DNA of 64,000 nt from an uncultured Candidatus Cloacimonadota bacterium (GCA_964429035.1 CAYSAT010000002.1:26626-90625), one strand, 5' to 3'; shown: positions 16,946 to 55,333, counted from the first letter of the stretch. Program-made: numbers and translations. Notes: generated by a model not told the origin, from the sequence alone.

Positions 16946-16993
16946 TGTGTAGTACCTTCTTGGGACTTAACGAGTCATTCAGGAGTAGTTCAC

Positions 16994-17224: not shown

Positions 17225-17271
17225 CTTTATACCTCACATATGTATCTGATACATTGATCTTTGCATAATTG

Positions 17272-23551: not shown

Positions 23552-23552
23552 T

Positions 23553-24614: not shown

Positions 24615-24623
24615 ATTAACTCC

Positions 24624-25394: not shown

Positions 25395-25397
25395 TAT

Positions 25398-26453: not shown

Positions 26454-26465
26454 TGTCTATCCCAG

Positions 26466-26687
26466 TCAGGAATTTTGCGAGATATAGGCGTAAACTTCGC
26501 CCAGAGTTAGCATTTGCTTGAACTCGTCTCTGGGAATGACCAGCCCGTATTCCTCATCAATCAGAGAAATAAAGGTCAAGTGTGCCAGAGAGTCCCATTC
26601 GGGGTAATCCCTGAAGATGTCCTCGGGTTTCACGGTGCCTTCATCCCTTTCCAGGGCTTCTGTGATGAGATTGATGAATTTCTCCAT
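26466..26687 (-). CDS. Acyl carrier protein (ACP-2)
   Basis: 73 aa, acidic; YPEWDSLAHLTFISLIDEEYG Ser attachment context. AGGAG before the ATG. Confidence 0.8.
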   Translation of the reverse strand: MEKFINLITEALERDEGTVKPEDIFRDYPEWDSLAHLTFISLIDEEYGLVIPRDEFKQMLTLGEVYAYISQNS

Positions 26688-26722
26688 TTTATGCTCCTTA
26701 TGCTTACTTGTTTTGGCAATTT

Positions 26723-28108: not shown

Positions 28109-28112
28109 TCTT

Positions 28113-28868: not shown

Positions 28869-28880
28869 ATTATCTCTGCT

Positions 28881-29123
28881 CTAATCTACTGTAATGCCGT
28901 ATTTGGCCAGGATATCCTTGCCCACCACATATGATCTGAAGCCCAAAATATCCTCCGGATCCAGCATAATGTCAAACACATCCTCAAGCTGGCTGACCAG
29001 GCTCAAGTGTACGATCGAATCCCAGCGGGGAAAAGTCCTGATCGCCAGGTTTTCATTGAGCAAGCTCTTATCGATCTCAAAAAGTTCCGTAAATACTTTA
29101 TTGTATGTCTCAGTGTGCGTCAT
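28881..29123 (-). CDS. Acyl carrier protein (ACP-1)
   Basis: ORF 28881..29147. I prefer the third ATG (29123, MTHTETYNKVF) because GAAGGA lies 7 nt upstream. FPRWDSIVHLSLVSQLEDVF is the Ser context. Confidence 0.75.
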   Translation of the reverse strand: MTHTETYNKVFTELFEIDKSLLNENLAIRTFPRWDSIVHLSLVSQLEDVFDIMLDPEDILGFRSYVVGKDILAKYGITVD

Positions 29124-29219
29124 CGTCATTCCTTCGTAAAAAAACATCCTGTTCTGGAGTAACCGTCCGATTTACATTTTCCGATGTTTCCAGTGCCTTT
29201 ATCCAAGGCATCCGGCTGA

Positions 29220-30296: not shown

Positions 30297-30335
30297 ATAG
30301 ATCCACTCAACAGAAACCCCTGATCCTGTCTGAGT

Positions 30336-31364
30336 CTAAATATCATGGCTAACTGCCCCTTCCGTGTAGAAGTCATCAGTCTCAATCACGGGCAATACGG
30401 CATCGGCGCAGATCGTAAAATCGGCAAATCCCCAGGATAATCCCTCACCCAAACCACAAGCCAGCACCCGCGAGCATTTATTGCCTTTGACATGCCCGTA
30501 ATGATCAGATATTAGCAGAGGTATTGATCCTGCTCCTGCATACCCCATTTGCCTGCTGTTTTTCAATACTTTCTCTGCTGGAATGCGTAATCTGTGGGCT
30601 AGTTCCTGGACCAATCCTTCACTGAATTGAGTCAGGGCAAAACTATCAAAATCTGCAGTCTCTGAGCCACAACTTGCTACATACTCCTGAAATGCCTGCG
30701 GAATTTCATTGCTAAAGAAATCATGTAGCCCCTGAACGTCGACGCGGAGAGAATCTTCCTGATCCGACCCTGCATCTTCTGCTTTTATAAAGCCATTGGA
30801 CGGATGCTGCATTCTGAAAGCTCCAGATGGAAGGATCATTGAGTTGATAGCATTTCCATCTGTGCCAGTAAAAACATGAAGATCATCAGAAATCTGCGCA
30901 CTTTCTAGTAGAAGCGCTGAAGTACTGTCTCCCACTTTCCAATCTGGATACAATTCAGAGGGGGCCATCTGCTTGCTTAGGGTGTCGCCCGTGATCAATA
31001 ATCCATAACGGCAATTGATTCGACTTAGAAGTGATCCTACAATGGCAATACCATAAATGAAACCTGCACCACTAAGATTGATATCAAAAACAATACAATC
31101 TACTGGTAACCCTAACCGACTCTGCAGCACGCACGCGGTTGCAGGGCTGCGATAATCTGGGGTTTGTGAAACAAAAACCAATATTCCGATCTCAGCAACC
31201 GAAACTCCCAGTTCTTCAATCGCACATTGCGCGGCGCTAAAACCAAGGTCTCCTGCCGTCTGGAATTCTGAAACCCAGTATGCGCCTGTTTCACTTGATC
31301 TTTTTTTGGGGATTGCTGAAGCCAGGGCAGCAATTTTTACGTCTGAAATACTGAATTTATTCAT
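30336..31364 (-). CDS. KASIII-fold protein lacking all three catalytic residues (KAS-1)
   Basis: ORF 30336..31466 (TTG). The start is set at ATG 31364 (MNKFSISDVKIAALASAIPKK), which aligns with the N-termini of the other KASIII paralogs. It reads FDINLSGAGF, FALTQFSEG and MGYAGAGSIP at the Cys/His/Asn positions. Confidence 0.8.
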   Translation of the reverse strand: MNKFSISDVKIAALASAIPKKRSSETGAYWVSEFQTAGDLGFSAAQCAIEELGVSVAEIGILVFVSQTPDYRSPATACVLQSRLGLPVDCIVFDINLSGAGFIYGIAIVGSLLSRINCRYGLLITGDTLSKQMAPSELYPDWKVGDSTSALLLESAQISDDLHVFTGTDGNAINSMILPSGAFRMQHPSNGFIKAEDAGSDQEDSLRVDVQGLHDFFSNEIPQAFQEYVASCGSETADFDSFALTQFSEGLVQELAHRLRIPAEKVLKNSRQMGYAGAGSIPLLISDHYGHVKGNKCSRVLACGLGEGLSWGFADFTICADAVLPVIETDDFYTEGAVSHDI

Positions 31365-31478
31365 CCGGTCTATCGCATACCATAATACAGATGTAAATAG
31401 GGTCAACCTTGTTTTCAAAGTTGGACATATGCATTCGCTTCCGCATTCAATATCGAGTCCATACAACCTATCGCTGCG

Positions 31479-37622: not shown

Positions 37623-39095
37623 CTATTGGATCAATTTTTTCTGCAAGATATGCCGATGATGCACAATCTGCTCTCTAATGATGGCTTTGAGCTCGAGATA
37701 TTCAATTCTTTTCAATACTTGGCCAGTCAGTATTATAAAAGCGAAGGCGGTAGTTATCTTGAGCACAAAAGATATCACGATACTATGTGGCGCAAGAAGG
37801 CCTGCTAACCATACTACAATAACCATTGGTATAGACAGTATTGCTGTGGGCATTATATCGAGTAGCTGTTCACTTGTAGGGTAGTTGACCAATTTGGCTG
37901 ACCACATTGAATTTAGCAGATAAGCAATAAATGAGTTAAATACCATTCCCCACAGCATTACAATCATGCCGAATTTAATACCGACTACTATTATTGGAAT
38001 AACAAGTATTTTCTTAATGATTTCCAGTTTGAGATAGAGGTCAGGCCGGTTTCTAGCATTCAACATATTCAGGTTCAAAGAATGGAGCGGATAAAGCGTT
38101 GCAGAAATACACATGATCCGTAAGTATGGAATCGCGGGTATCCACTTATCACCAACTAAAAGTTGAATGATTTCCTTCGATGTCGACATCATTAGCAACA
38201 TAAGGGTGCAGGTGATATAAAATGATAATTTAATCAACTTTTTATAGCCTGCCTTGAGTTTTACGTCATCACTGGCAATTGAGGCTAGGACAGGATAAGT
38301 CACTTGCTGAGTTGTCATTTCCAGATTTCGGGAAGGTAGGTTTTTGAACTGGTCAGCACGGGTAAAAAAACCTAGTTCTTGGGCAGAAAAGTATTTCCCG
38401 ATGATAAGTTTGTATATGTTTTTATAGACCGCGCCTATAAGATTGGCAGTTAGTATTTTCAGCCCAAAACCAAACAACTCTTTTAGTGAGTTTTTGCTGA
38501 ATTGAAATCTAGGATGCCAGCTAGACCATATGTGAAGCAATAAGACTCTTAGTACATTTTGTGTAATTGTCTTGATCGCCAAGCTCCAATATCCCAGTCC
38601 CATAAAAGCGAGGGTAATACCGACAACTCCTGAGCTAGTTGAAGAAATCAAAGATATCTTAGTTTGCAATTTAAAGTCAATATTCTTTGTCAGAATAGCT
38701 GTTTCAATCAACCCAAAGGAATTGACTATCAGATTTACAGCCATTATTTTAATTAAAAGATTGAGATCAGGCATCTTATAAAAGGACGATATAAAACCTG
38801 ATGCAAGGTATATTATCGTAAACATCAGCAAACCCATTGCAAGGTTTGTAAAAAACATTGTGTTATAGTCTTCGTCTGTGCAATTCTGTTTTCGGATCAG
38901 AGCCGATGTTAATCCCATTTCCACTAAAGAATCAGATATAGCAATGAAAACCGTAATCATGCCTATGGTCCCATATTCTTGGGGACTCAATAGTCGTGCA
39001 AGAATTACACCTACAATAAACTGCAGTAATTGATTAGCAGTTTTATCTGCAAAACTCCATTTCAAGCCACCAATTGTTTTATTCTTCAAACCCAT
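37623..39095 (-). CDS. wzx: Wzx-type oligosaccharide flippase (polysaccharide biosynthesis protein, MOP superfamily)
   Basis: 490 aa, ~12-14 TM segments. The N-terminus KNKTIGGLKWSFADKTANQLLQFIVGVILARLLSPQEYG is typical of Wzx/PST proteins. Confidence 0.8.
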   Translation of the reverse strand: MGLKNKTIGGLKWSFADKTANQLLQFIVGVILARLLSPQEYGTIGMITVFIAISDSLVEMGLTSALIRKQNCTDEDYNTMFFTNLAMGLLMFTIIYLASGFISSFYKMPDLNLLIKIMAVNLIVNSFGLIETAILTKNIDFKLQTKISLISSTSSGVVGITLAFMGLGYWSLAIKTITQNVLRVLLLHIWSSWHPRFQFSKNSLKELFGFGLKILTANLIGAVYKNIYKLIIGKYFSAQELGFFTRADQFKNLPSRNLEMTTQQVTYPVLASIASDDVKLKAGYKKLIKLSFYITCTLMLLMMSTSKEIIQLLVGDKWIPAIPYLRIMCISATLYPLHSLNLNMLNARNRPDLYLKLEIIKKILVIPIIVVGIKFGMIVMLWGMVFNSFIAYLLNSMWSAKLVNYPTSEQLLDIMPTAILSIPMVIVVWLAGLLAPHSIVISFVLKITTAFAFIILTGQVLKRIEYLELKAIIREQIVHHRHILQKKLIQ

Positions 39096-39146
39096 CGACG
39101 CATAACCGTATCATTTCAATCTGTTATAAATAACATATATAAACAT

Positions 39147-40142
39147 TTATGGCCGCATAACACCATGATCACTTGTCATAATAGAAGATTTCAGTATCTC
39201 ACCAACAATTCTACTGTAAACTTGAGCACCCTGGTGATTCAAATGACTAAGATCTTTATACAGATTACAATCATTCAATTCTGGATATGAGGCAGGGATG
39301 ATGATGTGTAAGGGTACTCCCTTTTTTTGTAATGCGGCTATAAGCTCTTCAGATATGAAAGTTGTCGAAGCAATGGCAGTATTGGCTGGACATCTTGGTG
39401 AAACGAAAGCAATTAAAAAAATGCCATTAACCCTGCACTCATCAATAAATAAGTTAAAGTATTGTTTCGCCAATAAGTCCCGTCTTCGGTCGGTCCTAGT
39501 GATTACTGTATTAGTGATTAAATTTTCAGAAAGATACTTATCAAAATCGTTAGCATTATATTTCCTTAAGTCTACGGTATCATGTAAGGGTATATACCCT
39601 CGGTCTGTGAGGTCTCGTTCACTAGGAGATTTAAGCAACTCAGCAATAATTGCCGCTACCTTCTGATTATAGGGAAGCATACGAAATGTATTTGTTAAAG
39701 AATTTGTAAAATCAATATCCACCAATAATCTGTTGATATGCGGGGTTTTTCTATATGGTCGCAATAAGTTTACTTTAGTATAGTGTTTATCGAAAAAATA
39801 GTCTATGTCCGATATGTCCCATAAAATAACTTTCGGCTTGTTCCGCTTGAGTATCAGTTGCAGTATTGCATACTTGTAAAAAATACTGGTTGCATCCTCT
39901 CCGGCATTATAAGTTGGCATTCCAACTTCAGCCTCGATAATGTCCGGTACATAGCCATGTTGGGCTGCTGAAGCTCCCATTATATAAACATCATAGTTGA
40001 TTTCTGCCAGATGGTTTATCAGAGCCCCTGAGGTCCCGGTATCTAAATCAAAATACCAATTCTCCAGTACTCTGCCAATCAATTGATCGAATAGCACCAA
40101 TATACTGAGAAAAATCATCACTTTTGTCAGTAGTTTCTTCAT
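39147..40142 (-). CDS. Membrane-anchored SGNH/DltD-like acyl-transfer protein (module B)
   Basis: ORF 39147..40175. The start is set at ATG 40142 (MKKLLTKVMIFLSILVLF), 5 nt after the MBOAT stop. VYIMGASAAQHG (Ser block) and KDLSHLNHQGAQ (DxxH block) are present. Same architecture as 14656..15603. Confidence 0.5.
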   Translation of the reverse strand: MKKLLTKVMIFLSILVLFDQLIGRVLENWYFDLDTGTSGALINHLAEINYDVYIMGASAAQHGYVPDIIEAEVGMPTYNAGEDATSIFYKYAILQLILKRNKPKVILWDISDIDYFFDKHYTKVNLLRPYRKTPHINRLLVDIDFTNSLTNTFRMLPYNQKVAAIIAELLKSPSERDLTDRGYIPLHDTVDLRKYNANDFDKYLSENLITNTVITRTDRRRDLLAKQYFNLFIDECRVNGIFLIAFVSPRCPANTAIASTTFISEELIAALQKKGVPLHIIIPASYPELNDCNLYKDLSHLNHQGAQVYSRIVGEILKSSIMTSDHGVMRP

Positions 40143-40146
40143 ATCT

Positions 40147-41538
40147 CTAGAACTGGAAATAGATAAAATTCTCACTGTTTAGGGAACCAATTAGCACTAT
40201 CAGTAGCGTGCAGACTATGTAAAAGGACCACCTAATCATTAACCTTTTACTGGCAATAAAGGAGGGAAGCAACTCGTCTCCCTTGATAACTTCCAGAAGC
40301 CAGATCATCCCTGTGCCGATCAAAGAATATATCAGCAGTTGCTTGGAGCCCCAATAAAATCCAGATGGGCTCAAACCAAGATGAGATACTATGTATACAA
40401 CATCATTGATATTTCTGGCTCGGAACAAGATGAAGCAAAAGACGAAAAACCCCATCACTAAAATGTTGGATATTGCGTTACCCAGAATGCCCGGAAAATA
40501 CTTCCTTACTCGAGATCTCAGATTCGTAGTAGATAACTCCCAAAGTATTGCTGCAGCCTGTAGTAGCCCGAAAACCACAAAATTCCAGTTGGCGCCATGC
40601 CAGATGCCGATGATCTGAAAGGTAACCAGGGCTGCCAACAAAATTCCAACCCGGCCTATTCCCCGCAATTTGTACTGCAGAGGGGTATTCACGTAATCTC
40701 TGACCCAGGAAGAAAGTGAAATATGCCAGCGTCGCCAGAAATCTGTCACGCTTTTGGCAAAGAAAGGGATTCGGAAATTCTCAATCAGATTGAAGCCGAA
40801 CATTTTTGCCGAGCCAATCGCGATCTCCGAATACCCGGAAAAATCAGCGTAAATTTGAATAGTGTACGCAATTGCCGCGACAGTAAGGGTCAATCCATGG
40901 TGCATGTGGACATTGTTGAACACAGCGTCCGTATAGGGAGCCAAATTATTCGCCACAACCAGCTTTTTGAACAAACCCCAAAGAATAAGTGTGGCACCCC
41001 CTACCAGGTTGTTATATTCAAAACGTTTGACCTTGTCTATCTGGGGAAGGAACAATTTGCTGCGGGCAATAGGTCCGGCCAGCAGCTGAGGGAAAAAAGA
41101 CATATAGAGCGAGAACCGGCTAAAAGATGCCTGGCGATTACTGTTCTGCCAGTAAAGATCCAAAACATATCCGATCGCCTGGAAACTGAAAAATGAAATA
41201 CCAATCGGCAGTAGCAGCCTGGACCACAGAGAGTCATCAGGTATGTTTTGACCAAACAGGAGGATGGGGATGTATTTAAAAAATGCCAGTATCAGCACAT
41301 TGTAAGTTATAGCAGCGTAGATCAGCCATGTTTTTCTAAATCTGAGCCACAGCGCGCAAATGACGTAGTTGATGACAATTGCAGAGGCCAGGAAAACAAC
41401 ATACCAGCTTTGATTGACGTAATAGAAAACGAAACTTGCAGCCAGTAGCAGATAGATCCTGTACTTGTGCTGGAGCGTATAGTACAGAGCAACTATAGCA
41501 GTCAGGTAAATCAAATAGTAAAGGGACGTTAAGGACAT
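40147..41538 (-). CDS. MBOAT-family membrane O-acyltransferase (DltB/AlgI-like, module B)
   Basis: 463 aa polytopic; FWRRWHISLSSWVRDY and IIGIWHGANWNFVVFG (conserved His). Confidence 0.85.
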   Translation of the reverse strand: MSLTSLYYLIYLTAIVALYYTLQHKYRIYLLLAASFVFYYVNQSWYVVFLASAIVINYVICALWLRFRKTWLIYAAITYNVLILAFFKYIPILLFGQNIPDDSLWSRLLLPIGISFFSFQAIGYVLDLYWQNSNRQASFSRFSLYMSFFPQLLAGPIARSKLFLPQIDKVKRFEYNNLVGGATLILWGLFKKLVVANNLAPYTDAVFNNVHMHHGLTLTVAAIAYTIQIYADFSGYSEIAIGSAKMFGFNLIENFRIPFFAKSVTDFWRRWHISLSSWVRDYVNTPLQYKLRGIGRVGILLAALVTFQIIGIWHGANWNFVVFGLLQAAAILWELSTTNLRSRVRKYFPGILGNAISNILVMGFFVFCFILFRARNINDVVYIVSHLGLSPSGFYWGSKQLLIYSLIGTGMIWLLEVIKGDELLPSFIASKRLMIRWSFYIVCTLLIVLIGSLNSENFIYFQF

Positions 41539-41658
41539 CTGGCTAAATGGGTCTCCTCGATATAATCTGCTCTTTCATAGGCTACAGGTGTTGAGTGATA
41601 CCCCCTCATTACAATACTGTTAAGTCGCCCGATTCTGTACAATCCTCGCGCAAATACC

Positions 41659-41904
41659 TTAAGGCGTGATTTTTGACAGTATGCAGATATAAAGGTCTGC
41701 CATAGTGTTAAAGTTTATCACTTCCACGAAGCTGAATTTCACATTAAAATGCTTCTCGATCTCGGTGATTATAACCATATGTGAAAGAGAATCCCAACCC
41801 TTAATGTCTCCGGCAGTAGTATCATCTGTTAAATCAAAATCGCTGTGTTTCAAGACATCTTGCACAATTGCTGACACATTTTGTTTTACTTGTTCTTTAG
41901 TCAT
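41659..41904 (-). CDS. Acyl/aminoacyl carrier protein (module B)
   Basis: ORF 41659..41937. Start at ATG 41904 (MTKEQVKQNV), preceded by AGGAGATAGT and lying downstream of the GNAT stop at 41913. DIKGWDSLSHMVIITEIE is the Ser context. Confidence 0.75.
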   Translation of the reverse strand: MTKEQVKQNVSAIVQDVLKHSDFDLTDDTTAGDIKGWDSLSHMVIITEIEKHFNVKFSFVEVINFNTMADLYICILSKITP

Positions 41905-41912
41905 ACTATCTC

Positions 41913-42686
41913 CTATCTTGCGTGACCAACTTTCCAAAATATGTCAAAGTAGCCACTTATTTGAAAGCCTAAATCCAACCAAGGTTTTCTGCCCATTTTT
42001 GACGCTTGCGAAAACACAAATTTGTACCCATTATCTAGACACAGTTGCAGTGCTTTAGTAAAAATCGATTTTCCAATCCCTTGTCTTCTAAATTCGGGAT
42101 CTACTGCCACCATATGTACACTAGCACCTGTAGAGCCCAAGAAAACCAGGGTTGTAGCCACTGGTTTGTTATCGAGATACCCAAGCAAAAGAACATACTT
42201 TTGAGACAAGAATCCTAGGACTGGTAACTCCTTGTTAGAGAATAGTACCTTTCTAGCGATTTCATGCCACAAATCCAAAGTTGGATTGTCTGATACAATC
42301 CTAACCTGTAGTTCCAATGACTCTTGATTTTCCGGTATGCCTTGTGTGAGATCGTAGAAAATGGCCGGCCACACCTCAATTTGCCTGATGCCCAGATTTT
42401 CCATTTCTGCAGTCAGATTTCCGTTTTCCAGTAACTCGTGCCTTATGAGAAATATCGGTGATATTGTGTTAGTCAACACACTGTCATTAAGAGCGCTAAG
42501 GTATCCTTCAGCTTCTGCAATCCTATCCGAGACTATCGTGAAATTCGGCCAACAGAAACGACTTGAAAAGATACTGAGATCAGGTTCATCAACTTTGATT
42601 ATGTCTGTTGATTGATAAAACACATCTTCATACATCTCTATCAGATTCTTCCAGTTTAGTTCATTCAACTGTGATGATCGGTCCAT
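41913..42686 (-). CDS. GNAT-family N-acetyltransferase
   Basis: ORF 41913..42695 (GTG); ATG 42686 (MDRSSQLNELNW) preferred. VHMVAVDPEFRRQGIGKSIFTKAL is the acetyl-CoA-binding motif A (Q/RxxGxG). Confidence 0.65.
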   Translation of the reverse strand: MDRSSQLNELNWKNLIEMYEDVFYQSTDIIKVDEPDLSIFSSRFCWPNFTIVSDRIAEAEGYLSALNDSVLTNTISPIFLIRHELLENGNLTAEMENLGIRQIEVWPAIFYDLTQGIPENQESLELQVRIVSDNPTLDLWHEIARKVLFSNKELPVLGFLSQKYVLLLGYLDNKPVATTLVFLGSTGASVHMVAVDPEFRRQGIGKSIFTKALQLCLDNGYKFVFSQASKMGRKPWLDLGFQISGYFDIFWKVGHAR

Positions 42687-42700
42687 ACCTAACACGAAAC

Positions 42701-44170
42701 CTAGGTTAATCCTGATAACTTGTTTCGATCAATTTTATCGTTTACATTCAAGGGAAATTGATCTATGTTAACAATGTTTTTGGGAACCATGTAGGGTGGC
42801 AATTTCAACCCAAGGTATCCAACAACATCTTCGTGCGACCCTTGATAATTTTCAATGAACAGAAACAACTGCTGGTTTCCATCTACCGTCTTGACGATGG
42901 CAATGGAGCGCTTACCAGTGAATTTGCTTGTGTGATATTCGATTTCATTTAGTTCGATGCGGAGACCCTGGATCTTGGCTTGAAAATCTTTCCGTTCACA
43001 ATATGAATAGTCGCCCTTTTCATTCATAAACACAATATCTCCGCTAGCGTAAAAGCGCTCGACCTGCCCGTTGTAATTTAAATAATGAAAGGATTCTGTA
43101 TTCTTTTCTTCGTCATTTAGGTAGCCTTCCGATACTTGGGGACCACCGATCAGCAATTCTCCTTTCTGACCAATTTCCGTGACCACTCTGTTATCATCCA
43201 ATATCAGGTGCTTAACTCCCGGCATAGGTTTTCCAATTGGAATTATATCATTGTAGAGTTCATCTGTACGAATCACATCCAACTGTTTTGTAAAAACGAT
43301 CACAGTTGTTTCGGTAGGACCGTATATGTTCCAAATTTTTGCATTGGGAATTGAAGGTTTAAACATATCAACCAAGGTTTTTGTAACAGGTTCAGCTCCA
43401 ATTAGAAGTGTTTTAACACTGGGCAGATGAAGTGACGATATGTACGATTTCAGTAAAGAAATAACTGACGGAACGAGAAATATAAACGTGATCGGATAAG
43501 TCGTAAGCACTCTAGCTATGTCAATTATCTTAATGCTTGCTGGATTAATAGTATAGATTGTGGCTCCAACGCAAAGTGAAGGAAGAAGCATGAGAATCGA
43601 AGCATCAAATGTTAGGTCGAACATCTGTAAAACACTGTCAGTTTCACGATACTCTATGGTGGTTCCAAATAGTGACTGAAGAAAAGCTTCTAGGTTTTTC
43701 TTTGTGATTTTAACGCCTTTAGGTTTTCCTGTACTGCCAGATGTATATACAATATATGCTGTAGAAAGAGGTTCCAGACTTCTAAAATGCATATCAGTAA
43801 GTGGTTCAGGTATAGAATCCATACCAATAAAAGACAGGAAATCTGGTACCTTTTCTGAATCTGCCTTGATGCTGCTAACTACATGACTAATGTTCGAACT
43901 GGTAGATATTTGTATTAAACGATCAGGAGGATACGCCAGATTGAGAATTACATATCCACAATTACTCAGGAACGTGGCAATTATGAAAGCATAAGTTTCA
44001 ATATCATCATGCATGACTATGCCTAGTAAGTCATTGTCATGATGCTCATACAAATATTGGCAGTATTTTTTTACCCGCAAGCCCAGATCTTTATAACTGT
44101 GTGATTTATCACTAATCACAAAAGCTGTGTTATCTGAATGGAGCAAGTGTTCTATGATTTGTTCGATCAT
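42701..44170 (-). CDS. Adenylation enzyme, DltA-like (amino acid/carboxylate--carrier protein ligase)
   Basis: ORF 42701..44233. ATG 44170 (MIEQIIEHLL) is preferred because GGAGATAAT lies upstream. YIVYTSGSTGKPKGVKITKKNL, NIYGPTETT, YASGDIV, and a stand-alone ~490-aa size match DltA/NRPS A domains. Confidence 0.85.
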   Translation of the reverse strand: MIEQIIEHLLHSDNTAFVISDKSHSYKDLGLRVKKYCQYLYEHHDNDLLGIVMHDDIETYAFIIATFLSNCGYVILNLAYPPDRLIQISTSSNISHVVSSIKADSEKVPDFLSFIGMDSIPEPLTDMHFRSLEPLSTAYIVYTSGSTGKPKGVKITKKNLEAFLQSLFGTTIEYRETDSVLQMFDLTFDASILMLLPSLCVGATIYTINPASIKIIDIARVLTTYPITFIFLVPSVISLLKSYISSLHLPSVKTLLIGAEPVTKTLVDMFKPSIPNAKIWNIYGPTETTVIVFTKQLDVIRTDELYNDIIPIGKPMPGVKHLILDDNRVVTEIGQKGELLIGGPQVSEGYLNDEEKNTESFHYLNYNGQVERFYASGDIVFMNEKGDYSYCERKDFQAKIQGLRIELNEIEYHTSKFTGKRSIAIVKTVDGNQQLFLFIENYQGSHEDVVGYLGLKLPPYMVPKNIVNIDQFPLNVNDKIDRNKLSGLT

Positions 44171-44280
44171 ATTATCTCCGTTTTGGTTTTTAGCAAATAT
44201 CTGCCATAGAATTTGTAAGCGAATTTTTTCCATTCTTCATTTCGATACCTCATCAATTCTCACGAGATGACATTGTAAAG

Positions 44281-45660
44281 TCATTTATGGTATCTACGAA
44301 TAAATTCTTCCACCTCAGGTATCCCGCCCTGGAAGATGAGGTAGCCGTTGTAGGGTTCGCCGGCGGTGATATCTCCGGCGATGGGAGTGAGCATCAATTC
44401 GCGGACTTTCTCAGGATCGGTGGTTTGCCCCAAAGCCCAGCCCAGCTTGATGTAGGCGACTTCGGGGAGGAGGTTTTCACCGGGGACCACGCCCATGCTC
44501 ATGAGGTCGCGGCCGGTGTCGTAAACGAACATATGGACGAAGCCCCAGAGGGTTTGCACGGTCATAAAGATCTGGACGCCTTTGGCGACGGCGCGCTGGA
44601 TGGCGGGATACAGGGGCTTGTTGACGTGCCCGAGTCCCGTTCCGGCGATCACGATGCCCTTGTAGCCGTTCTCCGTGAGGGAATCGATGATGTCCGGATG
44701 CATGTTGGGATAGTAATAAACGATCGCCACCCGTTCCTCGAAGAAGGGCAGCACTTTCACAGTTTTGTCCTTGCGCCGCTGGTTGTAATCCTTCATCGGG
44801 ATCACGGAATCCCGCGTCACACGGGCGATCGGGATATCTCCGACGGTGCGGAAGGTGCTGCGGTAGGAGGAGTGCATCTTGCGCACACGTGTGCCCCGGT
44901 GGAGCAAACCATATTCATCGCTGGTGGGGCCAAACATGCAGACCATCACCTCCGCGATATCGGAATGTCCGGCGGCATAGGCGGCGTGCATCAGATTCAG
45001 CGCGGCGTCGGAAGACGGGCGGTCGCTGGAACGTTGCGAACCCACCATCACCACAGGGACCGGCAGGTCCTGCAGCATGAAGGAAAGCGCCGCGGCGGTG
45101 TGATGCATGGTATCGGTGCCGTGGCCGATGATGATGCCTTGGGTGCCCGCGTTGATCTCGTGGCCGATGGAAACCGCCAGTTTCTTGTACTGGTCGGGCC
45201 CCATGTTTTCGGAAAAAACGGCGAAAAGTTTTTCGGTGTCGAGGTTGCAGATCTCCGCCAATTCTGGCACCGCGCCATAGAGTTCGCCGGGAGAGAAAGC
45301 AGGAATCACGGCTCCGGTGCGGTAATCCAGACGCGAGGCGATGGTCCCGCCGGTGCCGAGCAGCTTGACTTTCGGCAAGCCCGGGGTGAAGGGAAATTCC
45401 TTCTCCGGAATCTTGTAATGCGCCTCTTTGTAGCCGATCTCCTGCATGCCGCGGATCGTGTCCACATCAATGCCGACGTTGTAACCGGTGGCCAGTTTGA
45501 TCACGATGTGACGGTCGTCGTCATTTTCGCTGCGGGGCAGGATGATGCCCTGAAAATCCCCGCGCGAAGTCTGGATATTCGTCTCTCCCCAGACTCTGGC
45601 TTGAAAGTGTTTCAACACTTCAAGCGCTCGCCCTTTGTAGCCCTTGAAGAGATCAAGCAT
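44281..45660 (-). CDS. gatD: Glutamyl-tRNA(Gln) amidotransferase subunit D (archaeal-type, asparaginase-like)
   Basis: 459 aa. A ~90-aa N-terminal extension precedes the asparaginase core with LLGTGGTIASRLDYRTG and IIGHGTDTM motifs. Encoded next to a GatE homolog. Confidence 0.85.
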   Translation of the reverse strand: MLDLFKGYKGRALEVLKHFQARVWGETNIQTSRGDFQGIILPRSENDDDRHIVIKLATGYNVGIDVDTIRGMQEIGYKEAHYKIPEKEFPFTPGLPKVKLLGTGGTIASRLDYRTGAVIPAFSPGELYGAVPELAEICNLDTEKLFAVFSENMGPDQYKKLAVSIGHEINAGTQGIIIGHGTDTMHHTAAALSFMLQDLPVPVVMVGSQRSSDRPSSDAALNLMHAAYAAGHSDIAEVMVCMFGPTSDEYGLLHRGTRVRKMHSSYRSTFRTVGDIPIARVTRDSVIPMKDYNQRRKDKTVKVLPFFEERVAIVYYYPNMHPDIIDSLTENGYKGIVIAGTGLGHVNKPLYPAIQRAVAKGVQIFMTVQTLWGFVHMFVYDTGRDLMSMGVVPGENLLPEVAYIKLGWALGQTTDPEKVRELMLTPIAGDITAGEPYNGYLIFQGGIPEVEEFIRRYHK

Positions 45661-45671
45661 TTTCTGATCTG

Positions 45672-45708
45672 TTCACGAATTTCACGAATTTACACGAATT
45701 ACAGGAAT
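45672..45708 (+). repeat. Tandem CACGAAT array (left flank of the GxxExxY gene, 5' leader of gatD)
   Basis: gtTCACGAATtTCACGAATttaCACGAATtaCAGGAATg: four units at 9-10-nt spacing (45674, 45683, 45693, 45702). Confidence 0.85.
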
Positions 45709-45717
45709 GCAAAATAT

Positions 45718-46101
45718 CTAGAGGACTATACGTTCATGCTGAAGACTTGGGGTACCAAAATTGACCAGAATACCCAATTTTAGCTGAGCTGCTTTCAGGT
45801 AATTGAGAACCTGTGCGAAATGATCACTGGTGAATTGGCTCAAGGCTTTCAATTCGACGATAATCTGTCCGTAGCATAGGAAGTCAACTTTGTAGGTCTT
45901 CGATATGATAGCACCTTTATAGGCGATCTCAAATTCTTTTTCGCGCTCAAAGGGAATCCCTCTAGTCTGGAGTTCCAAGGCTAACGCTTCCTGATAAACT
46001 GGTTCCAGAAAACCACATCCCAAGGTTCTGTGTACTTCCATGCATGCGCCAACAATAGCGTAACTCTCGTCTTTGAAAAGTAGATCCTGGCTATTGTCCA
46101 T
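45718..46101 (-). CDS. GxxExxY protein (PD-(D/E)XK-like, PDDEXK_3 family)
   Basis: 127 aa; the name-giving motif is present (GCGFLEPVYQEAL). Typical size and a C-terminal LVNFG motif. Confidence 0.85.
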   Translation of the reverse strand: MDNSQDLLFKDESYAIVGACMEVHRTLGCGFLEPVYQEALALELQTRGIPFEREKEFEIAYKGAIISKTYKVDFLCYGQIIVELKALSQFTSDHFAQVLNYLKAAQLKLGILVNFGTPSLQHERIVL

Positions 46102-46107
46102 TAGTTG

Positions 46108-46138
46108 TCCACGAATTGCACGAATTCACACGAATTTT
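46108..46138 (+). repeat. Tandem CACGAAT array (right flank of the GxxExxY gene)
   Basis: tcCACGAATtgCACGAATtcaCACGAATttt: three units (46110, 46119, 46129), same orientation as the 45672..45708 array. Confidence 0.85.
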
Positions 46139-46266
46139 AGGTTTTACCGGTTACCTAGTGTTGAGATGGTTGCAGAACCCTGGGGCTACCACTATTGTTC
46201 ACAGGTTCCCATGTAGCTTTCATGCGCAGGTACCCAGGAAACTTTGTCATTGCAGATCTGGCGGTC

Positions 46267-46295
46267 ATTATATAAGTTGAGGTAATTCGTGTCAA
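46267..46295 (-). promoter_or_regulatory. Perfect sigma70-consensus promoter (TTGACA-N17-TATAAT) facing the GxxExxY gene and gatD
   Basis: Minus strand 46295->46267 reads TTGACA cgaattacctcaactta TATAAT. The -35 lies inside the inverted CACGAAT array, and its internal TGA is the gatE stop codon (46294-46292). Confidence 0.45.
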
Positions 46296-46310
46296 TTCGT
46301 GTAATTCGTG
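46285..46310 (-). repeat. Tandem CACGAAT array in inverted orientation, overlapping the gatE 3' end
   Basis: Plus strand ATTCGTGtcaATTCGTGtaATTCGTG (46285, 46295, 46304) is the reverse complement of CACGAAT x3. It encodes the last gatE residues ...STNYTN and the stop. Confidence 0.85.
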
Positions 46311-48346
46311 GACAGCTCTTCTTCCACAGCCTGCCGTAACTCCGCCAGCGGAATGTTACCCAAGGCAAGGTAACGCAAACGGCCCATCATCCAGTTGGAT
46401 TGGGCGTCCGGGCGCTTCAAGCCGTGCGTTTTGGCGCGCGCCCACATATTGCGTAACAGGGGTATTTGCGCCAGGATTTCCTCCCGCGCTACGTCCTTAT
46501 AATTCAGAACTGAAAGTACGGAAGAGAACTGCATATTGGGGCTGGCAAAAAGCACTCTCAGCATTTCCGGCAGGATGTCCGGCGCCAGTTTCTTCTTGGC
46601 GGCATAGATCAGCAAATCTTCCACCCGCTGATTGTCGAAGGGCAGCGGATCGCGTCCCTGCAGGCTTTTGAGCAGGTGCGCGTAGTACAGGCCCAGGCGT
46701 TTGGGCGGCACACCATGTTTGGTTGAAAAATCCTCGAGTACCGGCAGCAGATTGTTGCGCAGCAAGTAGGTATGCGCGTCGTCTGGGATACCCCACTCCG
46801 CAAGTTGTTCCAGCCGCTTCTGCAAACCAACTGGAAGCAAGGCGCGGGCTGCCTCGATCTCCTCGTCAGTTACGGGAATAGGAGCGGAATCGGTGTCCGG
46901 ATACATTCTGTCCGCGCCCGGCAACACCCGTTCAAACAGCGTCGTGCCGTCTGGCAGGGATTTCCGCGTTTCGTTGGGCACGCCCTGGAAAGCCAGCTGG
47001 CAGCGCTCGGAAATGGTCTCCAGAGCGGTTTTGATATCTTCGTCAGAAGCCCAAAAAAGCATCTGCGCGTCGGCATTTGTGGACTTCAGTTCTTTGCGGA
47101 TCTTGCCCCAATCCGTGGAGTGTAGCGAAGAATGAGCCTGGGTTATTGAATCTATATTCGCCGACGGGGACGTCGGCGCTCCCAGTTCCTCCGAATGGAA
47201 CATGTTCGGTTTTTCCAGGCAGGCAATGACTTTCAGGCGGTCGGAAATCTCGTCGGCGAAGCAGCGTCCGGGCTGATTAAAGTAACTCAGGATGCCTGCG
47301 AACCCCGGAAGGTTCACCGCTACAAGTTTCCAGCCTTCCGCGCCGGCTTGTTTCAGCAGCGGAATATGGCGCCAATCTGCGGGATCCAGAACTGCGTGTT
47401 GGATACTCCATTCAGCCTGGTCCTTGATCCTGGCAGCCAGTTCATCCCGGATCAACAGCAGCGATTTCTGACGGAAAGCCTCGTTATGAGTGAGTTTAGG
47501 AATCCAGGCGATGTGCGCCACGCCCTTGATTTCTACCCGCGTCCCACCTGTGATGGAAACGTTCACATCCTGGCGCGCGGCTCCAATGCCAACCCTCACC
47601 AATCCAGAGCTGCGGGCGATGAAGCGGATGTTCTGCGCGGCTTCCGCTGCCTCCCAAGGTGTGAGCATATCCGGATAGGTAACCGTTTCGATGAGCGGCA
47701 TGCCCAAGCGGTCAGCGTAGTATACCCTGGTGTGGCGTACGTCGGACACTTCGCGGCAGCTGTCTTCCTCGATGGAAAACTGGATCACGCGGATTTTTTT
47801 GGTGGAGATGGGAAACTCGCCCTCGATACCCAGGATCGCCGTGCGTTGGAAACCGGTGGGGATGCTGCCGTCCAGATACTGTTTGCGCGTGATATGCAGT
47901 TCGCCCACGATCTTCATGTTCAGGAGCAGGGCGATCCGCAGCGCGTGGGACAGCGCTTCGCGGCTCAGGGCAAAGGGCGGAGTGTCGTCCACTTCGTAGG
48001 TGCAGGCGCTGTCGTTCTTGATGCGGTACAGTATCTTTTTCCGCGTCTTGAATTCCATCAGCGCGGTGCCGTCGTACTCACCGAGTTCGGAAAGAGTGGG
48101 CCGCATATGCCGCACGATTTCCGCGTCGTAATCGGCGAAATCGTGGTAGATACCTGCGGCGCAGCGGCAAAATAGTTTGCGCTGGGTGAGGAGCTGTTGG
48201 TGAACTTCCAGGCCGCACTTGAACCCAAGCGTTCGCCAGGTCGCTTGCACGGCGTCCGAAAGGCTCACCCAGCCTGTGTTTGAGCGGCTGAGCAGCCAGT
48301 TTTGCCGGTGGGGATTAGCCTCCGGCAAGTGTATATACTCTGACAT
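46292..48346 (-). CDS. gatE: Glutamyl-tRNA(Gln) amidotransferase subunit E (archaeal-type)
   Basis: ORF 46292..48361 (GTG); ATG 48346 (MSEYIHLPEANP) is slightly preferred. FKCGLEVHQQLLTQRKLFCRC and ITRKQYLDGSIPTGFQRTAILG are the GatE versions of the GatB/E cradle-domain motifs. Paired with gatD. Confidence 0.85.
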   Translation of the reverse strand: MSEYIHLPEANPHRQNWLLSRSNTGWVSLSDAVQATWRTLGFKCGLEVHQQLLTQRKLFCRCAAGIYHDFADYDAEIVRHMRPTLSELGEYDGTALMEFKTRKKILYRIKNDSACTYEVDDTPPFALSREALSHALRIALLLNMKIVGELHITRKQYLDGSIPTGFQRTAILGIEGEFPISTKKIRVIQFSIEEDSCREVSDVRHTRVYYADRLGMPLIETVTYPDMLTPWEAAEAAQNIRFIARSSGLVRVGIGAARQDVNVSITGGTRVEIKGVAHIAWIPKLTHNEAFRQKSLLLIRDELAARIKDQAEWSIQHAVLDPADWRHIPLLKQAGAEGWKLVAVNLPGFAGILSYFNQPGRCFADEISDRLKVIACLEKPNMFHSEELGAPTSPSANIDSITQAHSSLHSTDWGKIRKELKSTNADAQMLFWASDEDIKTALETISERCQLAFQGVPNETRKSLPDGTTLFERVLPGADRMYPDTDSAPIPVTDEEIEAARALLPVGLQKRLEQLAEWGIPDDAHTYLLRNNLLPVLEDFSTKHGVPPKRLGLYYAHLLKSLQGRDPLPFDNQRVEDLLIYAAKKKLAPDILPEMLRVLFASPNMQFSSVLSVLNYKDVAREEILAQIPLLRNMWARAKTHGLKRPDAQSNWMMGRLRYLALGNIPLAELRQAVEEELSTNYTN

Positions 48347-48504
48347 TGGGGACAAATCCACTCATAGTGCGGATTTTGTCCAGCTTTAATTTTATCCCTG
48401 AGGGGCAGGTTCCAAATCGCCTGGCGACGTTTTGGGCGCAGTTTCGCGAAGCAATTGTTTCATTGTGAAATCATTGCCTTTGTTTATAAGCAATTACTGA
48501 GAGG

Positions 48505-52819: not shown

Positions 52820-55333
52820 TCAGCGCAGCAGGGCGATCTTGCCAGACCGGCGCTGGCCTTTGGCGTCGTTCACCACCACGTAGTAAACACCGCTGCCGCA
52901 CTTCTTCCCTTTAGCGTTCTGGCCGTTCCATTCAAAACGCGAAAATTCGTTCTCATCCAAAATGATCACCAACGCTCCGGAAGCGTCGTAAATCCGGCAC
53001 TGATTGGTGCCGCGGGGCATGATTTCGCTGGGGAAATTGCTGATGACCAAGGTGCTTTTGCCATCCGGACGGAAGGGATTGGGGTAGATCTTGAGAGTCT
53101 CCAGAGCGGTTTCCGGCTTGATCGTCCGGCCGATGGTTAGCGTATTCAAGCCATCCGGAGTGCCGATCAACAGCAAGCCCTCGGTGGGTTGGTAACCCAG
53201 GGCGGTGATATAGTTGGAAAGCAGGGGCGAGTTGTCCTGATAGTAGTTCGTAAACCGTTCAGTCTGGGGGTCATACATGCTGATCCCGTGCTCCAAACTG
53301 CCGATCCAGACGCGGTTGAAAGGATCGAGGAAGATCGCCGTGGGTGTGGTGCGCACCGACCCGTAGAGCCGTTCTTCGTCCACGTAATAGAGTAGGTCGT
53401 TGTTCCAAAGGTTGGTGGAGGTGTTATAGATGAAGCGTTTGACCGAGGTGTCCCACTTATACCAGAAAGCCTCGTCCCACATGAACAATCCGGTGCTGGC
53501 GGCGATCCAATGCTGCGTTCCCTCATAGGGGCTTTCCACAGAAACCACGCCGTAAACCTCGCAATTGTTCAGGTCTGAAGGCGGCGGAACGATCCAATGG
53601 TCGCCATTGGTGGCAGGGATGGAGTCGTCGTTCCAGATCACGAGGCCGCGGTCGCTTTCCGTGCCGATAAAGTATTGTCGCCCGTTGTGGAAACTGAAGG
53701 TGGAACGCTGAAACACGCTGTTGGGGATCGTGAATGTGCCCACCAGGCTGTCCGCCGCGTTGAACACGCTGAAACCGTCGTCGTAGCAGGCCACAAGCAT
53801 GTTGCCGTGTGAATCGCGGGACACATGCGTCGAGGTGTCGCCCAAAAGGGTTGGCGAGCCTGGAATGACGTCTCCCCACTCTGTGGTCTCCGCGTCCCAA
53901 ACCCTTATCCCATCGCTGTCGAGGAGTTTCCAGGCCCCGGTGGTTTCATCATAGATGGTCAGGCCGTTGTCCCAGTCCAGAGGGCTGCCTGTGGTTACGT
54001 CGTAGGTGCCGAACCATTTGCGGTTGTGGCTGTCCACGGTCACGCTAAGTACGTTATCCGTATGGATGGGGCTGTTGCCGGTGGTGAAGGTTTGCCATTC
54101 CCCGTCCAGATAGCGGCTGGTTCCCAGCGCGCTTTTCTTGAGCGGCAGATGGTTGATGTTCCCGCTGGAAAACCAGGCGGCGTGGTTGGCGTCCGTGGTG
54201 ATCTGGCGGATCTTGGGAAAGCCGATGGAATTGGGCTGAAAGCGCACCCACATATCCAATTGCCGCTTGTTTGTGTTGTCGGCCCAAAGGTCCTGATAGG
54301 TATAGATTCCGTCGCCCCAGGTGCAAAGATAGACGACGCGTCCGTTGGGAGAAGGGACGATGCGGCTGACGCTTTTGCTTCCGAGTCCGGACTCGCCGGC
54401 ACTCCAATGCTTGATGTAGCCGCTGGTATCGATGCTGGTGAGCAGCGTGTCGGAACTGCGTGAATATGCCAGGAAATCCTCGTTCCACAGGCCATAGGAA
54501 ACCCACACGGTGTTCCAGTGATCCACGCAAGCGCTGGATATCACGTCGCCGAGCAGGCCCTGGCTGGAAGAAATGGTCTGCCAGCCATCGCTCCAGGGAT
54601 CGCTGGAATGCAGATACACCGCGGAGGATGTGGCAACCACCAGTTTCTGCTCGTTGATGGCGAGTTTGTTCTGGAAACCAATGGGAATCGGCGCGCCCTG
54701 GAACCGGTGCCAGGCGGAATCGACGTCCAGGGAATCCACATGCACGAAATTCACGCCCGCTGTGCTGCTCAGAAACAGGTAATCGTTTTCAGCCAGGGCG
54801 AGGGCGTCGATCTGGTTGTTAAGCAGGCCCCCGTTGGTGTTTTCCGCGCTGTAAAGATGCAGCAGCAGAGGGAAGTTTACGCCTTCCAGGTAATAGTAGG
54901 AAGCCAAACCGTTGGCTGTGGCCACCAGGATGTTGGATCCGTGCTCCACGATGCCGGTCACACGGTTGGAAGGCAGGCCCAGCTCCGTGTTCAATTGCTG
55001 GATGCCCAAAGGGCTAACGATGCTGATGCCGTCGAAAGCGCTGCCCAGCCACAGACTTTGGGAAGCGCTGATGTATTCGATATTGCGCACGTCGTTGGAA
55101 GCCAGGCCGTCTGCCGTGGTCCAGATCCTCTTTTGCTCCAGGGCGCTCTGGTTATCGATGCTGGATGGCGTAAGGCCGAGCTGCAGCACTCCGCCCCAAG
55201 TGGAAAAATAAACGTCTTCGCCCTGAACCATCAGGTCATAAACGTGGCTGGTATTGGTCACGGTCTGCCATTTCGCGGCATGCAAGGCCAGGCAGCAGAT
55301 TCCCGCCGCCAAAAGCGTCAAAACTCTCTTCAT
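52820..55333 (-). CDS. Secreted beta-propeller-repeat protein with T9SS-type C-terminal sorting domain
   Basis: 837 aa. Signal peptide MKRVLTLLAAGICCLALHA. Repeated W/G/D-rich blades resemble two-component-regulator propeller repeats. The C-terminus is LKIYPNPFRPDGKSTLVISNFP...GSGVYYVVVNDAKGQRRSGKIALLR (Por_Secre_tail/FlgD-Ig-like). Confidence 0.65.
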   Translation of the reverse strand: MKRVLTLLAAGICCLALHAAKWQTVTNTSHVYDLMVQGEDVYFSTWGGVLQLGLTPSSIDNQSALEQKRIWTTADGLASNDVRNIEYISASQSLWLGSAFDGISIVSPLGIQQLNTELGLPSNRVTGIVEHGSNILVATANGLASYYYLEGVNFPLLLHLYSAENTNGGLLNNQIDALALAENDYLFLSSTAGVNFVHVDSLDVDSAWHRFQGAPIPIGFQNKLAINEQKLVVATSSAVYLHSSDPWSDGWQTISSSQGLLGDVISSACVDHWNTVWVSYGLWNEDFLAYSRSSDTLLTSIDTSGYIKHWSAGESGLGSKSVSRIVPSPNGRVVYLCTWGDGIYTYQDLWADNTNKRQLDMWVRFQPNSIGFPKIRQITTDANHAAWFSSGNINHLPLKKSALGTSRYLDGEWQTFTTGNSPIHTDNVLSVTVDSHNRKWFGTYDVTTGSPLDWDNGLTIYDETTGAWKLLDSDGIRVWDAETTEWGDVIPGSPTLLGDTSTHVSRDSHGNMLVACYDDGFSVFNAADSLVGTFTIPNSVFQRSTFSFHNGRQYFIGTESDRGLVIWNDDSIPATNGDHWIVPPPSDLNNCEVYGVVSVESPYEGTQHWIAASTGLFMWDEAFWYKWDTSVKRFIYNTSTNLWNNDLLYYVDEERLYGSVRTTPTAIFLDPFNRVWIGSLEHGISMYDPQTERFTNYYQDNSPLLSNYITALGYQPTEGLLLIGTPDGLNTLTIGRTIKPETALETLKIYPNPFRPDGKSTLVISNFPSEIMPRGTNQCRIYDASGALVIILDENEFSRFEWNGQNAKGKKCGSGVYYVVVNDAKGQRRSGKIALLR

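Follow-up and report, generated by a model that had tools for sequence, protein, structure and literature searches.

What does a set of genes recalling the Dlt system of Firmicutes do at the edge of a polysaccharide locus in a bacterium with two membranes, and which molecule would receive its acyl group? This question is raised by a stretch of 64,000 nucleotides from an uncultured Candidatus Cloacimonadota bacterium, sequenced from sludge metagenomes (GCA_964429035.1, CAYSAT010000002.1:26626-90625; hereafter the window, with positions counted from its first letter), where a cassette of five minus-strand genes encodes, in this order, an adenylation enzyme or ligase, a protein of the GNAT family, a phosphopantetheine carrier protein, an MBOAT (membrane-bound O-acyltransferase) and a single-pass SGNH/DltD-like protein, with a Wzx flippase immediately after. 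The answer that we somewhat favour is that the cassette would acylate the glycan flipped by Wzx, on the periplasmic side of the membrane, with a group that stems from an α-amino acid, by way of the carrier, the MBOAT and the SGNH protein.

A five-gene cassette at the head of a glycan locus

The cassette and the adjoining flippase gene are laid out as follows:

42701-44233, minus strand: adenylation enzyme, 510 aa as an open reading frame (ORF); AMP-binding PF00501, 193 bits
41913-42695, minus strand: GNAT, 260 aa; Pfam GNAT, 33.8 bits
41659-41904, minus strand: phosphopantetheine carrier, 81 aa from its ATG; PP-binding PF00550, 32.2 bits
40147-41538, minus strand: MBOAT, 463 aa; Pfam MBOAT, 82.9 bits
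39147-40142, minus strand: single-pass SGNH/DltD-like protein, 331 aa from its ATG; no Pfam match of its own
37623-39095, minus strand: Wzx-type MOP flippase, directly downstream of the cassette; Polysacc_synt_3/Wzx, 297 bits

Families were assigned with Pfam and NCBIfam for four of the five cassette proteins and also for Wzx, and these matches, together with the minus-strand ORFs, bear out the gene content, order and positions of the initial annotation, all of whose quoted motifs are present (YTSGSTGKPKGV, RRQGIGKS, GWDSLSH, RRWHISLSSW, WHGANWNF, MGASAAQ and DLSHLNHQG). Its placement of the cassette directly before Wzx in a glycan locus also holds, the cassette opening a glycan locus that covers about 43 kb on the minus strand; the presence of Wzx next door would mark the glycan as one that is flipped on a lipid carrier. 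The ATG at 44170, where the initial annotation had ended the module, fits the starts of homologues better than the full ORF and is the probable true start of the adenylation enzyme, which is then 489 aa long. All five genes lie on one strand with intergenic gaps of 4-120 bp, the SGNH gene lying 4 bp past that of the MBOAT, and from sequence and gene context we infer that they form one operon module; a scan for promoters and terminators returned counts no higher than in shuffled sequence. The organism had been described as bearing a type IX secretion system (T9SS), with which an ORF at 61003-63912 agrees, its Por_Secre_tail sorting domain scoring 34.3 bits (cut-off 27); since the host encodes T9SS cargo, it is therefore diderm.

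The order ligase, GNAT, carrier, MBOAT and SGNH protein recurs in four other independent metagenomic loci (L001/L002, L004, L030/L031 and L032), whose proteins share 36-66% (ligase), 21-83% (GNAT), 60-67% (MBOAT) and 42-50% (SGNH protein) identity with those of the window. The neighbours of these cassettes vary and are always glycan genes, among them nonulosonic-acid-type genes, UDP-sugar dehydrogenases and glycosyltransferases; the cassette of L032, like that of the window, is directly followed by a Wzx homologue. A scan with an alignment of the SGNH protein found no relatives of the close cassette in 185,579 species-representative genomes, and the same alignment recovered a single further partial locus (L029) from metagenomes, so that the close cassette is rare. 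The GNAT sits between ligase and carrier in every copy, and word-indexed searches of 5.8 billion proteins, with a single sequence and with a five-sequence profile, found no member of its family outside the cassette; the inserted GNAT reported in the initial annotation is thus an integral and conserved part of the cassette, homologue searches having returned only cassette copies. A word-indexed search of the same 5.8 billion proteins likewise found no member of the close SGNH subfamily outside it. The recurrence shows that the arrangement is no accident. As the order is kept in diverged loci, and as these searches met the GNAT family and the close SGNH subfamily only in the cassette, the five genes are inherited as one module, and they probably also work as one.

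An amino-acid ligase and its carrier

Judged by its sequence, the ligase is most probably a stand-alone amino-acid adenylation domain of the nonribosomal peptide synthetase (NRPS) type and not a fatty-acyl ligase. It scores 291.6 bits, just below the cut-off of 317.4, with the amino-acid adenylation model TIGR01733, against about 133 bits at most with the best fatty-acid-ligase model; a grouping with fatty-acyl-AMP ligases, which the initial annotation had named as the outcome that would speak against its Dlt-like scheme, is not what was found. Core motifs A3, A5, A7, A8 and A10 are all present (YTSGSTGKPKG, NIYGPTE, YASGD and NDKIDR), and the best solved relatives are the NRPS adenylation domains of LgrA, TycA and PheA, with DltA structures at about 150 bits and AlmE (PDB 4oxi) at 118 bits.

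Motifs A4, A5 and A10 served as anchors for the specificity positions, which were verified against the annotated DltA of Listeria (L036), with which the ligase shares 28% identity. Asp235 and Lys517, the residues that bind the α-amino group and the carboxylate respectively, are retained in five of five cassette ligases, which argues that the substrate is an α-amino acid. The comparison with DltA that had been proposed thus returned an amino-acid-type Asp/Lys pair but no DltA-like code: the ten residues read DALSLGIVIK in the window and DLMSLCTVAK in Listeria DltA, and the position of the Cys by which DltA selects the enantiomer is occupied by Gly. Other cassettes carry DALSLGFVGK (L030 and L032) or DVASITLIWK (L001 and L004); the resulting two code groups, DALSLG[IF]V[IG]K and DVASITLIWK, suggest that at least two different amino acids may be used across the cassette family. 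D-alanine, glycine and leucine were considered as the substrate and rejected, the code only weakly resembling known codes.

Might the ligase then activate a carboxylate that is not an amino acid, such as a hydroxy or keto acid, the GNAT having an unrelated role? A code that is not assignable and a TIGR01733 score slightly under its cut-off would be consistent with this, but Asp235 is kept in all five cassette ligases, and L005 and L028 have carrier-linked ligases of another kind, which resemble acyl-CoA ligases; we hold such a substrate to be very improbable. For the pathway favoured here, the first step, in which the ligase would activate an α-amino acid and thioesterify it to the phosphopantetheine on Ser39 of the carrier, is well supported by sequence. 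This attachment residue lies in GWDSLSH (codon 41788-41790). The carrier gives no match to a DltC model, and BLAST against Listeria DltC returns an E value of 0.63.

An MBOAT with a fused acyl-shuttle motif

The MBOAT carries two conserved histidines, His272 (RRWHIS) and His314 (GIWHG), the latter being the predicted catalytic residue. The core equivalent to DltB is followed, towards the C-terminus, by two additional hydrophobic segments (400-418 and 433-451), and the protein ends in ...SLNSENFIYFQF, with the terminal motif FIYFQF at 40150-40167 and the codon of Tyr460 at 40159-40161. A terminal FxYxx[FY] is kept in all cassette MBOATs, the other copies ending likewise or in FLYFQY or FIYYQF, and DltX of Listeria ends in ...GAKFIYNEF. 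FxYxxF is the experimentally defined acyl-Tyr shuttle motif, which Dlt systems carry on the separate DltX and PatA carries fused to the MBOAT, its Tyr being acetylated before the group passes to the SGNH partner (PMC12148441). The initial annotation had overlooked this fifth Dlt component, the DltX motif being fused to the MBOAT's C-terminus, and no separate DltX-like small ORF was found in 39000-44350.

The predicted architecture of the MBOAT is that of the PatA/AlgI type. Its only named matches are to DltB (TIGR04091, 166 bits with a cut-off of 375; PDB 6bug and 8jem, E 2e-21), whose reference form has about 395-425 aa and carries no shuttle extension at its C-terminus. Identity with Listeria DltB is 29% over an alignment that stops at residue 374, leaving about 90 extra residues in the MBOAT; annotated DltB proteins in general align at 26-31% to about residue 375, whereas generic "MBOAT family O-acyltransferases" align at 30-38% to residue 463.

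The SGNH protein and its distance from DltD

The SGNH protein has one N-terminal transmembrane helix (residues 4-22, after MKK), and with this single hydrophobic helix its catalytic domain should therefore face the periplasm. The predicted triad consists of Ser58 (39969-39971), Asp297 (39252-39254) and His300 (39243-39245). The family is large: a profile search of 1.84 billion representatives returned 4536 of them at E<=1e-3, and 349 even at E<=1e-30. An alignment of 95 sequences shows no variation at G56, S58, G81 and H300 and a conservation above 90% at N79 and D297, a pattern that is, by alignment, the SGNH-type Ser/Asp/His arrangement with its predicted oxyanion residues. Members of the family give weak matches to DUF1574 (24 of 95), GDSL_2 (17 of 95) and DltD (PF04914; 7 of 95), while the cassette protein itself has no PF04914 match and BLAST against Listeria DltD returns an E value of 0.86. 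The best PDB matches of its AlphaFold2 (AF2) model (pLDDT 71) are DltD structures, at E 2e-5 with a TM-score of only about 0.37; small GDSL esterases come next. The label "DltD-like SGNH" is fair, whereas "DltD" is not.

A true orthologue of DltABCD, D-alanylating an anionic polymer, deserves almost no credence. Such a reading could appeal to DltA and DltB as the best-named NCBIfam matches, to DltD as the best fold match, and to the five of ten specificity-code positions shared with Listeria DltA. However, the scores fall far below the equivalog cut-offs, with neither DltA threshold reached (NF003417, 241 bits with a cut-off of 476; TIGR01734, 224 bits with a cut-off of 559.85) and DltB at 166 of 375; sequence similarity to DltC and DltD is lacking, the selectivity Cys is a Gly, a separate DltX is missing, the genes stand in another order and include a GNAT, and the host is diderm. 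In the Dlt reading of the initial annotation, the donor logic and the gene content stand; orthology with DltABCD does not, as no protein reaches the family cut-off for DltA, DltB, DltC or DltD.

Does the carrier feed the MBOAT?

In DltB, helix HC is the docking site of DltC, with contacts at M302, V305, I306, M309, K312 and R317 (PMC11035591). The segment aligning with this helix was used to define MBOAT types:

Type 1: DltB proper, without a fused C-terminal motif
Type 2, [PS]LGG[NS]R: P. distasonis, Vescimonas, ten loci from Firmicutes metagenome-assembled genomes (MAGs), Bartonella and Deinococcus (with AlgF); further members in Vibrio alfacsensis, Methylomonas and B. thuringiensis
Type 3, without GG, P[LFI]xx[KR]xRxxG: all cassette MBOATs, L005a, L005b, L006-L011 and L028
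Outliers, none of the three types: L019, L021 and L022 (Firmicutes), a second MBOAT of the window (MBOAT2) and the MBOAT of S. meliloti pSymB

A small neighbour-joining tree places the cassette MBOATs inside type 3, apart from types 1 and 2. An ORF with a PP-binding domain lies 44-1104 bp from the MBOAT in all evaluable type-3 loci (the five cassettes, L005a, L005b, L006, L008, L009, L010 and L028), and at 8 bp (L024) and 911 bp (L026) from two partial MBOATs whose signature cannot be typed; the carriers of L005, L006, L009, L024 and L028 are confirmed by Pfam. No carrier was found within 5-8 kb of a type-2 MBOAT in any of 17 loci (12 genome or plasmid loci and five further plasmid loci). Clade and gene context together suggest that the cassette MBOAT probably accepts its acyl group from the carrier.

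Several points weigh against this. The residues by which DltB docks DltC are not kept in the corresponding segment of the MBOAT, a finding that is decisive in neither direction; the tree is crude; the carrier statistic comes from few, phylogenetically related loci and is an association and not a proof; L012, a non-GG locus, shows no carrier, and L007 and L011 are incomplete on the carrier side; and the nearest annotated pairs of MBOAT and SGNH protein, those of P. distasonis and Vescimonas, have no nearby carrier. The partner proteins of the MBOATs in these two pairs are distant members of the cassette SGNH family. A grouping with carrier-independent MBOATs had been named beforehand as evidence against carrier use, and it is found by half: the protein is nearer to generic O-acyltransferases than to DltB, yet it belongs to a distinct, carrier-associated clade.

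The same locus could be explained by two systems that merely travel together, an acetyl-CoA-dependent MBOAT/SGNH pair for O-acetylation and a cytoplasmic set of ligase, carrier and GNAT, in which an amino sugar nucleotide supplied by neighbouring DegT enzymes would receive, through the GNAT, either the aminoacyl group from the carrier or acetyl. The PatA/AlgI architecture with its fused FxYxxF would suit this explanation, as would the carrier-less two-gene pairs among the nearest annotated relatives, the unconserved docking residues and the synthesis of amino-deoxy sugars by the locus (RmlA, a 2,3-dehydratase and two DegT aminotransferases); N-(N-acetyl-aminoacyl) amino sugars are moreover known in O-antigens. 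It sits poorly with a five-gene order that stays constant although the five loci have diverged and differ in their sugar genes, with a GNAT family and an SGNH subfamily not found outside the cassette, with the position of the MBOAT in the carrier-associated clade and not in the PLGG[NS]R clade, and with a carrier directly upstream of the MBOAT in the cassette, in L005a, in L024 and in a second triad of the window described below. The acyl-CoA pyrophosphate loop of the GNAT also suggests a CoA donor and not a carrier donor. We regard two separate systems as unlikely, though as the main rival of the favoured pathway.

The GNAT and the proposed pathway

The canonical GNAT domain spans residues 127-260 approximately and contains RRQGIG (42072-42089), its acyl-CoA pyrophosphate loop. 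The preceding N-terminal part of about 125 aa is conserved (WPNF, GIRQI..W) and gave no match in a profile search of the PDB, in which only the C-terminal GNAT domain was matched. The nearest PDB and NCBIfam relatives are N-acetyltransferases, many of them Nα-acetyltransferases (the tandem-GNAT 7wx5/6wqb, RimI, Naa30/50). The locus has separate amino-sugar N-acetyltransferases of its own, of NeuD/PglB and hexapeptide type, so that the GNAT is not needed for acetylating amino sugars. Because the CoA loop is kept, because the gene lies between ligase and carrier, and because of these other sugar N-acetyltransferases, the simplest role for the GNAT would be Nα-acylation of the carrier-bound aminoacyl group, an assignment that we offer tentatively and with rather less than even confidence. 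Nα-acylation would yield a neutral, more stable ester, and it is the least secure step of the model.

After the loading of the carrier, the favoured pathway would proceed in three further steps. In the second, which is the weakest, the aminoacyl residue on the carrier would receive at its free α-amino group, through the GNAT, an acyl group from acetyl-CoA or another short acyl-CoA. In the third, for which clade and context speak, the carrier would present its phosphopantetheine thioester at the cytoplasmic tunnel of the MBOAT, which would, assisted by His314, transfer the acyl group to its own Tyr460 (FIYFQF) at the outer face, so that no separate DltX would be needed. In the fourth, by analogy with the passage from DltX to DltD and from PatA to PatB, the SGNH protein would take the acyl group on Ser58 and hand it on to the glycan, either undecaprenyl-linked or polymerised, where a hydroxyl would accept it. 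We infer both the esterification of the glycan and the N-acetylation of the aminoacyl group.

What tells against this pathway as a whole is that it rests throughout on sequence and gene context, that the ligase code matches no assignable amino acid, that the AF2 model of the GNAT, built on three sequences, has a pLDDT of 40, which makes its acceptor a guess, and that the acceptor of the SGNH protein is not readable from sequence. The last of these points opens the way to an acceptor other than the glycan, such as lipid A or core, another lipid or an outer-membrane protein, reached by the same route from carrier through MBOAT to SGNH protein; known aminoacylation systems of Gram-negative bacteria (Bordetella dra, Vibrio cholerae AlmEFG) indeed target components that are non-glycan or unidentified. 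The cassette, however, always lies at the edge of polysaccharide loci, with Wzx directly after it in two, and its G+C content (37-43%) is like that of the low-G+C glycan island and unlike that of the backbone (52-58%), which begins at gatD, the shift from about 39% to about 55% falling at the cassette/gatD boundary. A non-glycan acceptor is in our estimation improbable, and esterification of the Wzx-flipped glycan remains the reading that we prefer.

Further carrier-MBOAT clusters and neighbouring genes

The glycan locus of the window holds a second carrier-MBOAT-SGNH triad (14656-17233, minus strand), which stands between two further genes:

17272-18519, minus strand: Kbl-type glycine C-acetyltransferase, 582 bits (cut-off 460), preceding the triad
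16997-17233, minus strand: acyl carrier protein (ACP) of the second triad
15590-16945, minus strand: MBOAT2, terminus GFIYANF, 33% identity to the cassette MBOAT
14656-15603, minus strand: SGNH2, a protein of the SGNH family
13542-14639, minus strand: FAD oxidoreductase, after SGNH2

The OlsHI ornithine-lipid ACP was considered for the ACP of this triad and rejected (38 bits with a cut-off of 130; the pathway is unrelated). Elsewhere in the glycan locus, an acyl-building block at 22156-31466 (minus strand) comprises four FabH-like ketoacyl-ACP synthase III genes and three short-chain dehydrogenase/reductase genes, and it includes:

28884-29171, minus strand: possible further ACP, no Pfam match
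26723-28228, minus strand: AMP-binding ligase, best model the exosortase-associated TIGR03098, below cut-off
26469-26738, minus strand: ACP
22156-22797, minus strand: NeuD/PglB/VioB-type acetyltransferase

Its content suggests that this block makes an unusual acyl substituent on carriers.

Related clusters are found in other organisms. In an Alphaproteobacteria MAG (L005, 2700-5479), a carrier, an MBOAT ending in QFIYFSF and an SGNH-family member (378 bits to the family hidden Markov model) follow in that order without a GNAT, and an acyl-CoA-ligase-type enzyme lies 1.2 kb downstream. On pSymB of S. meliloti (L042, 4737-9772), an MBOAT is accompanied by a membrane-anchored protein of 409 aa, the ACP SMb20651 and a protein of 628 aa. 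The 409-aa protein is annotated as a "TonB-dependent receptor", a name that is probably wrong; the 628-aa protein, annotated as a "HAD family hydrolase", we take to be FkbH-like, possibly with a GNAT-like C-terminus. According to the literature, the ligase SMb20650 acylates SMb20651 in vivo, and the pSymB neighbourhood may explain this orphan ACP. Together with the second triad of the window, the pSymB genes show, at the level of predicted gene content, that the pairing of carrier and MBOAT recurs.

A further recurrent and apparently uncharacterised module occurs in Lentimicrobium, Bacteroidales, Chlorobiota and Alphaproteobacteria MAGs (L009, 4754-13212; L006, L008, L010, L026 and L028; L005, 6689-11540). 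Its genes encode an asparagine-synthase-like product, an 83-aa ACP, a 288-aa protein, an MBOAT with an FxYxxF end, a protein of about 315 aa, an AMP-ligase and an NAD-synthase-like product, and sometimes also a methyltransferase.

The opposite end of the glycan locus (3770-5577) holds a PGA_cap (CapA-like) gene together with one for a de-N-acetylase of the PIG-L family; this pair hints at a de-N-acetylated amino sugar, which could be an alternative, free-amine acceptor. On the other side of the cassette, genes for an archaeal-type GatD (TIGR02153, 512 bits, above cut-off) and GatE (PDB 2d6f, 287 bits) are found at 44281-48361 on the minus strand of this T9SS-bearing bacterium, with a gene of the PD-(D/E)XK family between them (45718-46101). 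Two long ORFs on the plus strand of the high-G+C backbone, 44287-45783 (498 aa) and 47195-48175 (326 aa), run antisense to gatD and gatE and are probably composition artefacts and not genes. Two large secreted proteins have T9SS C-terminal sorting domains: that at 61003-63912, with the Por_Secre_tail match above cut-off already mentioned, and one at 52820-55333, with a weak CHU_C match and Reg_prop repeats.

Comparison with known systems

Two designs of MBOAT-SGNH pathways have been described: Dlt systems, with a carrier protein and a separate DltX, and the others, which use acyl-CoA, have a fused shuttle and "lack a similar carrier protein" (PMC12148441). As far as gene content can tell, the cassette and its surrounding clade would combine both designs, which bears on the published generalisation that non-Dlt MBOAT-SGNH pathways do without carrier proteins and suggests that carrier-protein-fed MBOAT acylation is not confined to the teichoic acids of Gram-positive bacteria. 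The literature searched contained no description of the cassette or of a GNAT-containing Dlt-like module; nearest to it, as partial precedents, stand Bordetella dra, AlmEFG and the S. meliloti SMb20650/51 genes. It is conceivable, although we stop short of even odds, that there is an unrecognised diderm class of carrier-fed, self-shuttling MBOAT-SGNH systems adding non-acetyl acyl groups to flipped glycans, chiefly in Bacteroidota and Chlorobiota and in some Alphaproteobacteria, of which this locus would run two, one of them delivering an amino acid that is probably Nα-acylated by the cassette-specific GNAT. If this is true, the cassette would provide the first aminoacyl ester placed on a Wzx-dependent polysaccharide by Dlt-like chemistry, the acyl groups known on extracellular surface polymers would no longer be limited to acetyl and D-alanyl, and modifications of O-antigens and capsules would become predictable from ligase specificity codes. 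With aminoacyl or N-acyl-aminoacyl esters, Gram-negative surfaces would change in their charge and antigenicity and in how sensitive they are to phages or antimicrobial peptides. The proposal also offers a concrete hypothesis for many uncharacterised clusters of MBOAT, ACP and ligase, of which S. meliloti SMb20650/51 and the Lentimicrobium-type module are examples.

The S. meliloti SMb20651 cluster resembles the cassette in its MBOAT with a terminal Tyr motif, its membrane-anchored 409-aa protein and its dedicated ACP and ligase, but the ligase is of the fatty-acyl type, the 628-aa protein stands at the place of the GNAT, and the MBOATs share only about 30% identity. In Bordetella pertussis dra and other Gram-negative dlt operons, an amino-acid ligase and carrier route likewise modifies the envelope of a diderm. 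The dra genes are homologues of dltABCD that target an outer-membrane component and have neither a GNAT nor a glycan-locus context; they are set apart from the cassette here by description only. Vibrio cholerae AlmEFG, which places glycine on lipid A, offers a stand-alone adenylation-domain ligase and a carrier in another case of Gram-negative envelope aminoacylation. AlmG, however, is a lipid A acyltransferase of the cytoplasmic face and not an MBOAT-SGNH pair, whereas the final enzymes of the cassette are an MBOAT and an SGNH protein, and AlmE is only a distant adenylation-domain relative of the ligase.

With DltXABCD of Firmicutes, the cassette shares an adenylating ligase, a small phosphopantetheine carrier, an MBOAT, an FxYxxF shuttle and a single-pass transferase of the SGNH fold; it differs in that the shuttle motif is fused to the MBOAT whereas DltX is a microprotein, and in its gene order (A-GNAT-C-B-D), its GNAT, its specificity code and its setting in a Wzx glycan locus of a diderm. 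With PatA/PatB, AlgI/AlgJ/AlgX and WssH/WssI, it has in common the two extra C-terminal helices of the MBOAT, the terminal shuttle hexapeptide and an adjacent SGNH partner, and those systems act on a polymer in the periplasm, the same place that is proposed for the cassette. They differ in using acetyl-CoA as donor without a carrier, whereas the cassette, by its gene context only, has a conserved carrier and an amino-acid ligase, and its MBOAT lacks the PLGG[NS]R signature common to the carrier-less relatives. The system is thus Dlt-like on its donor side and PatAB/AlgIJ-like on its transfer side and, by the tests run, a member of neither family.

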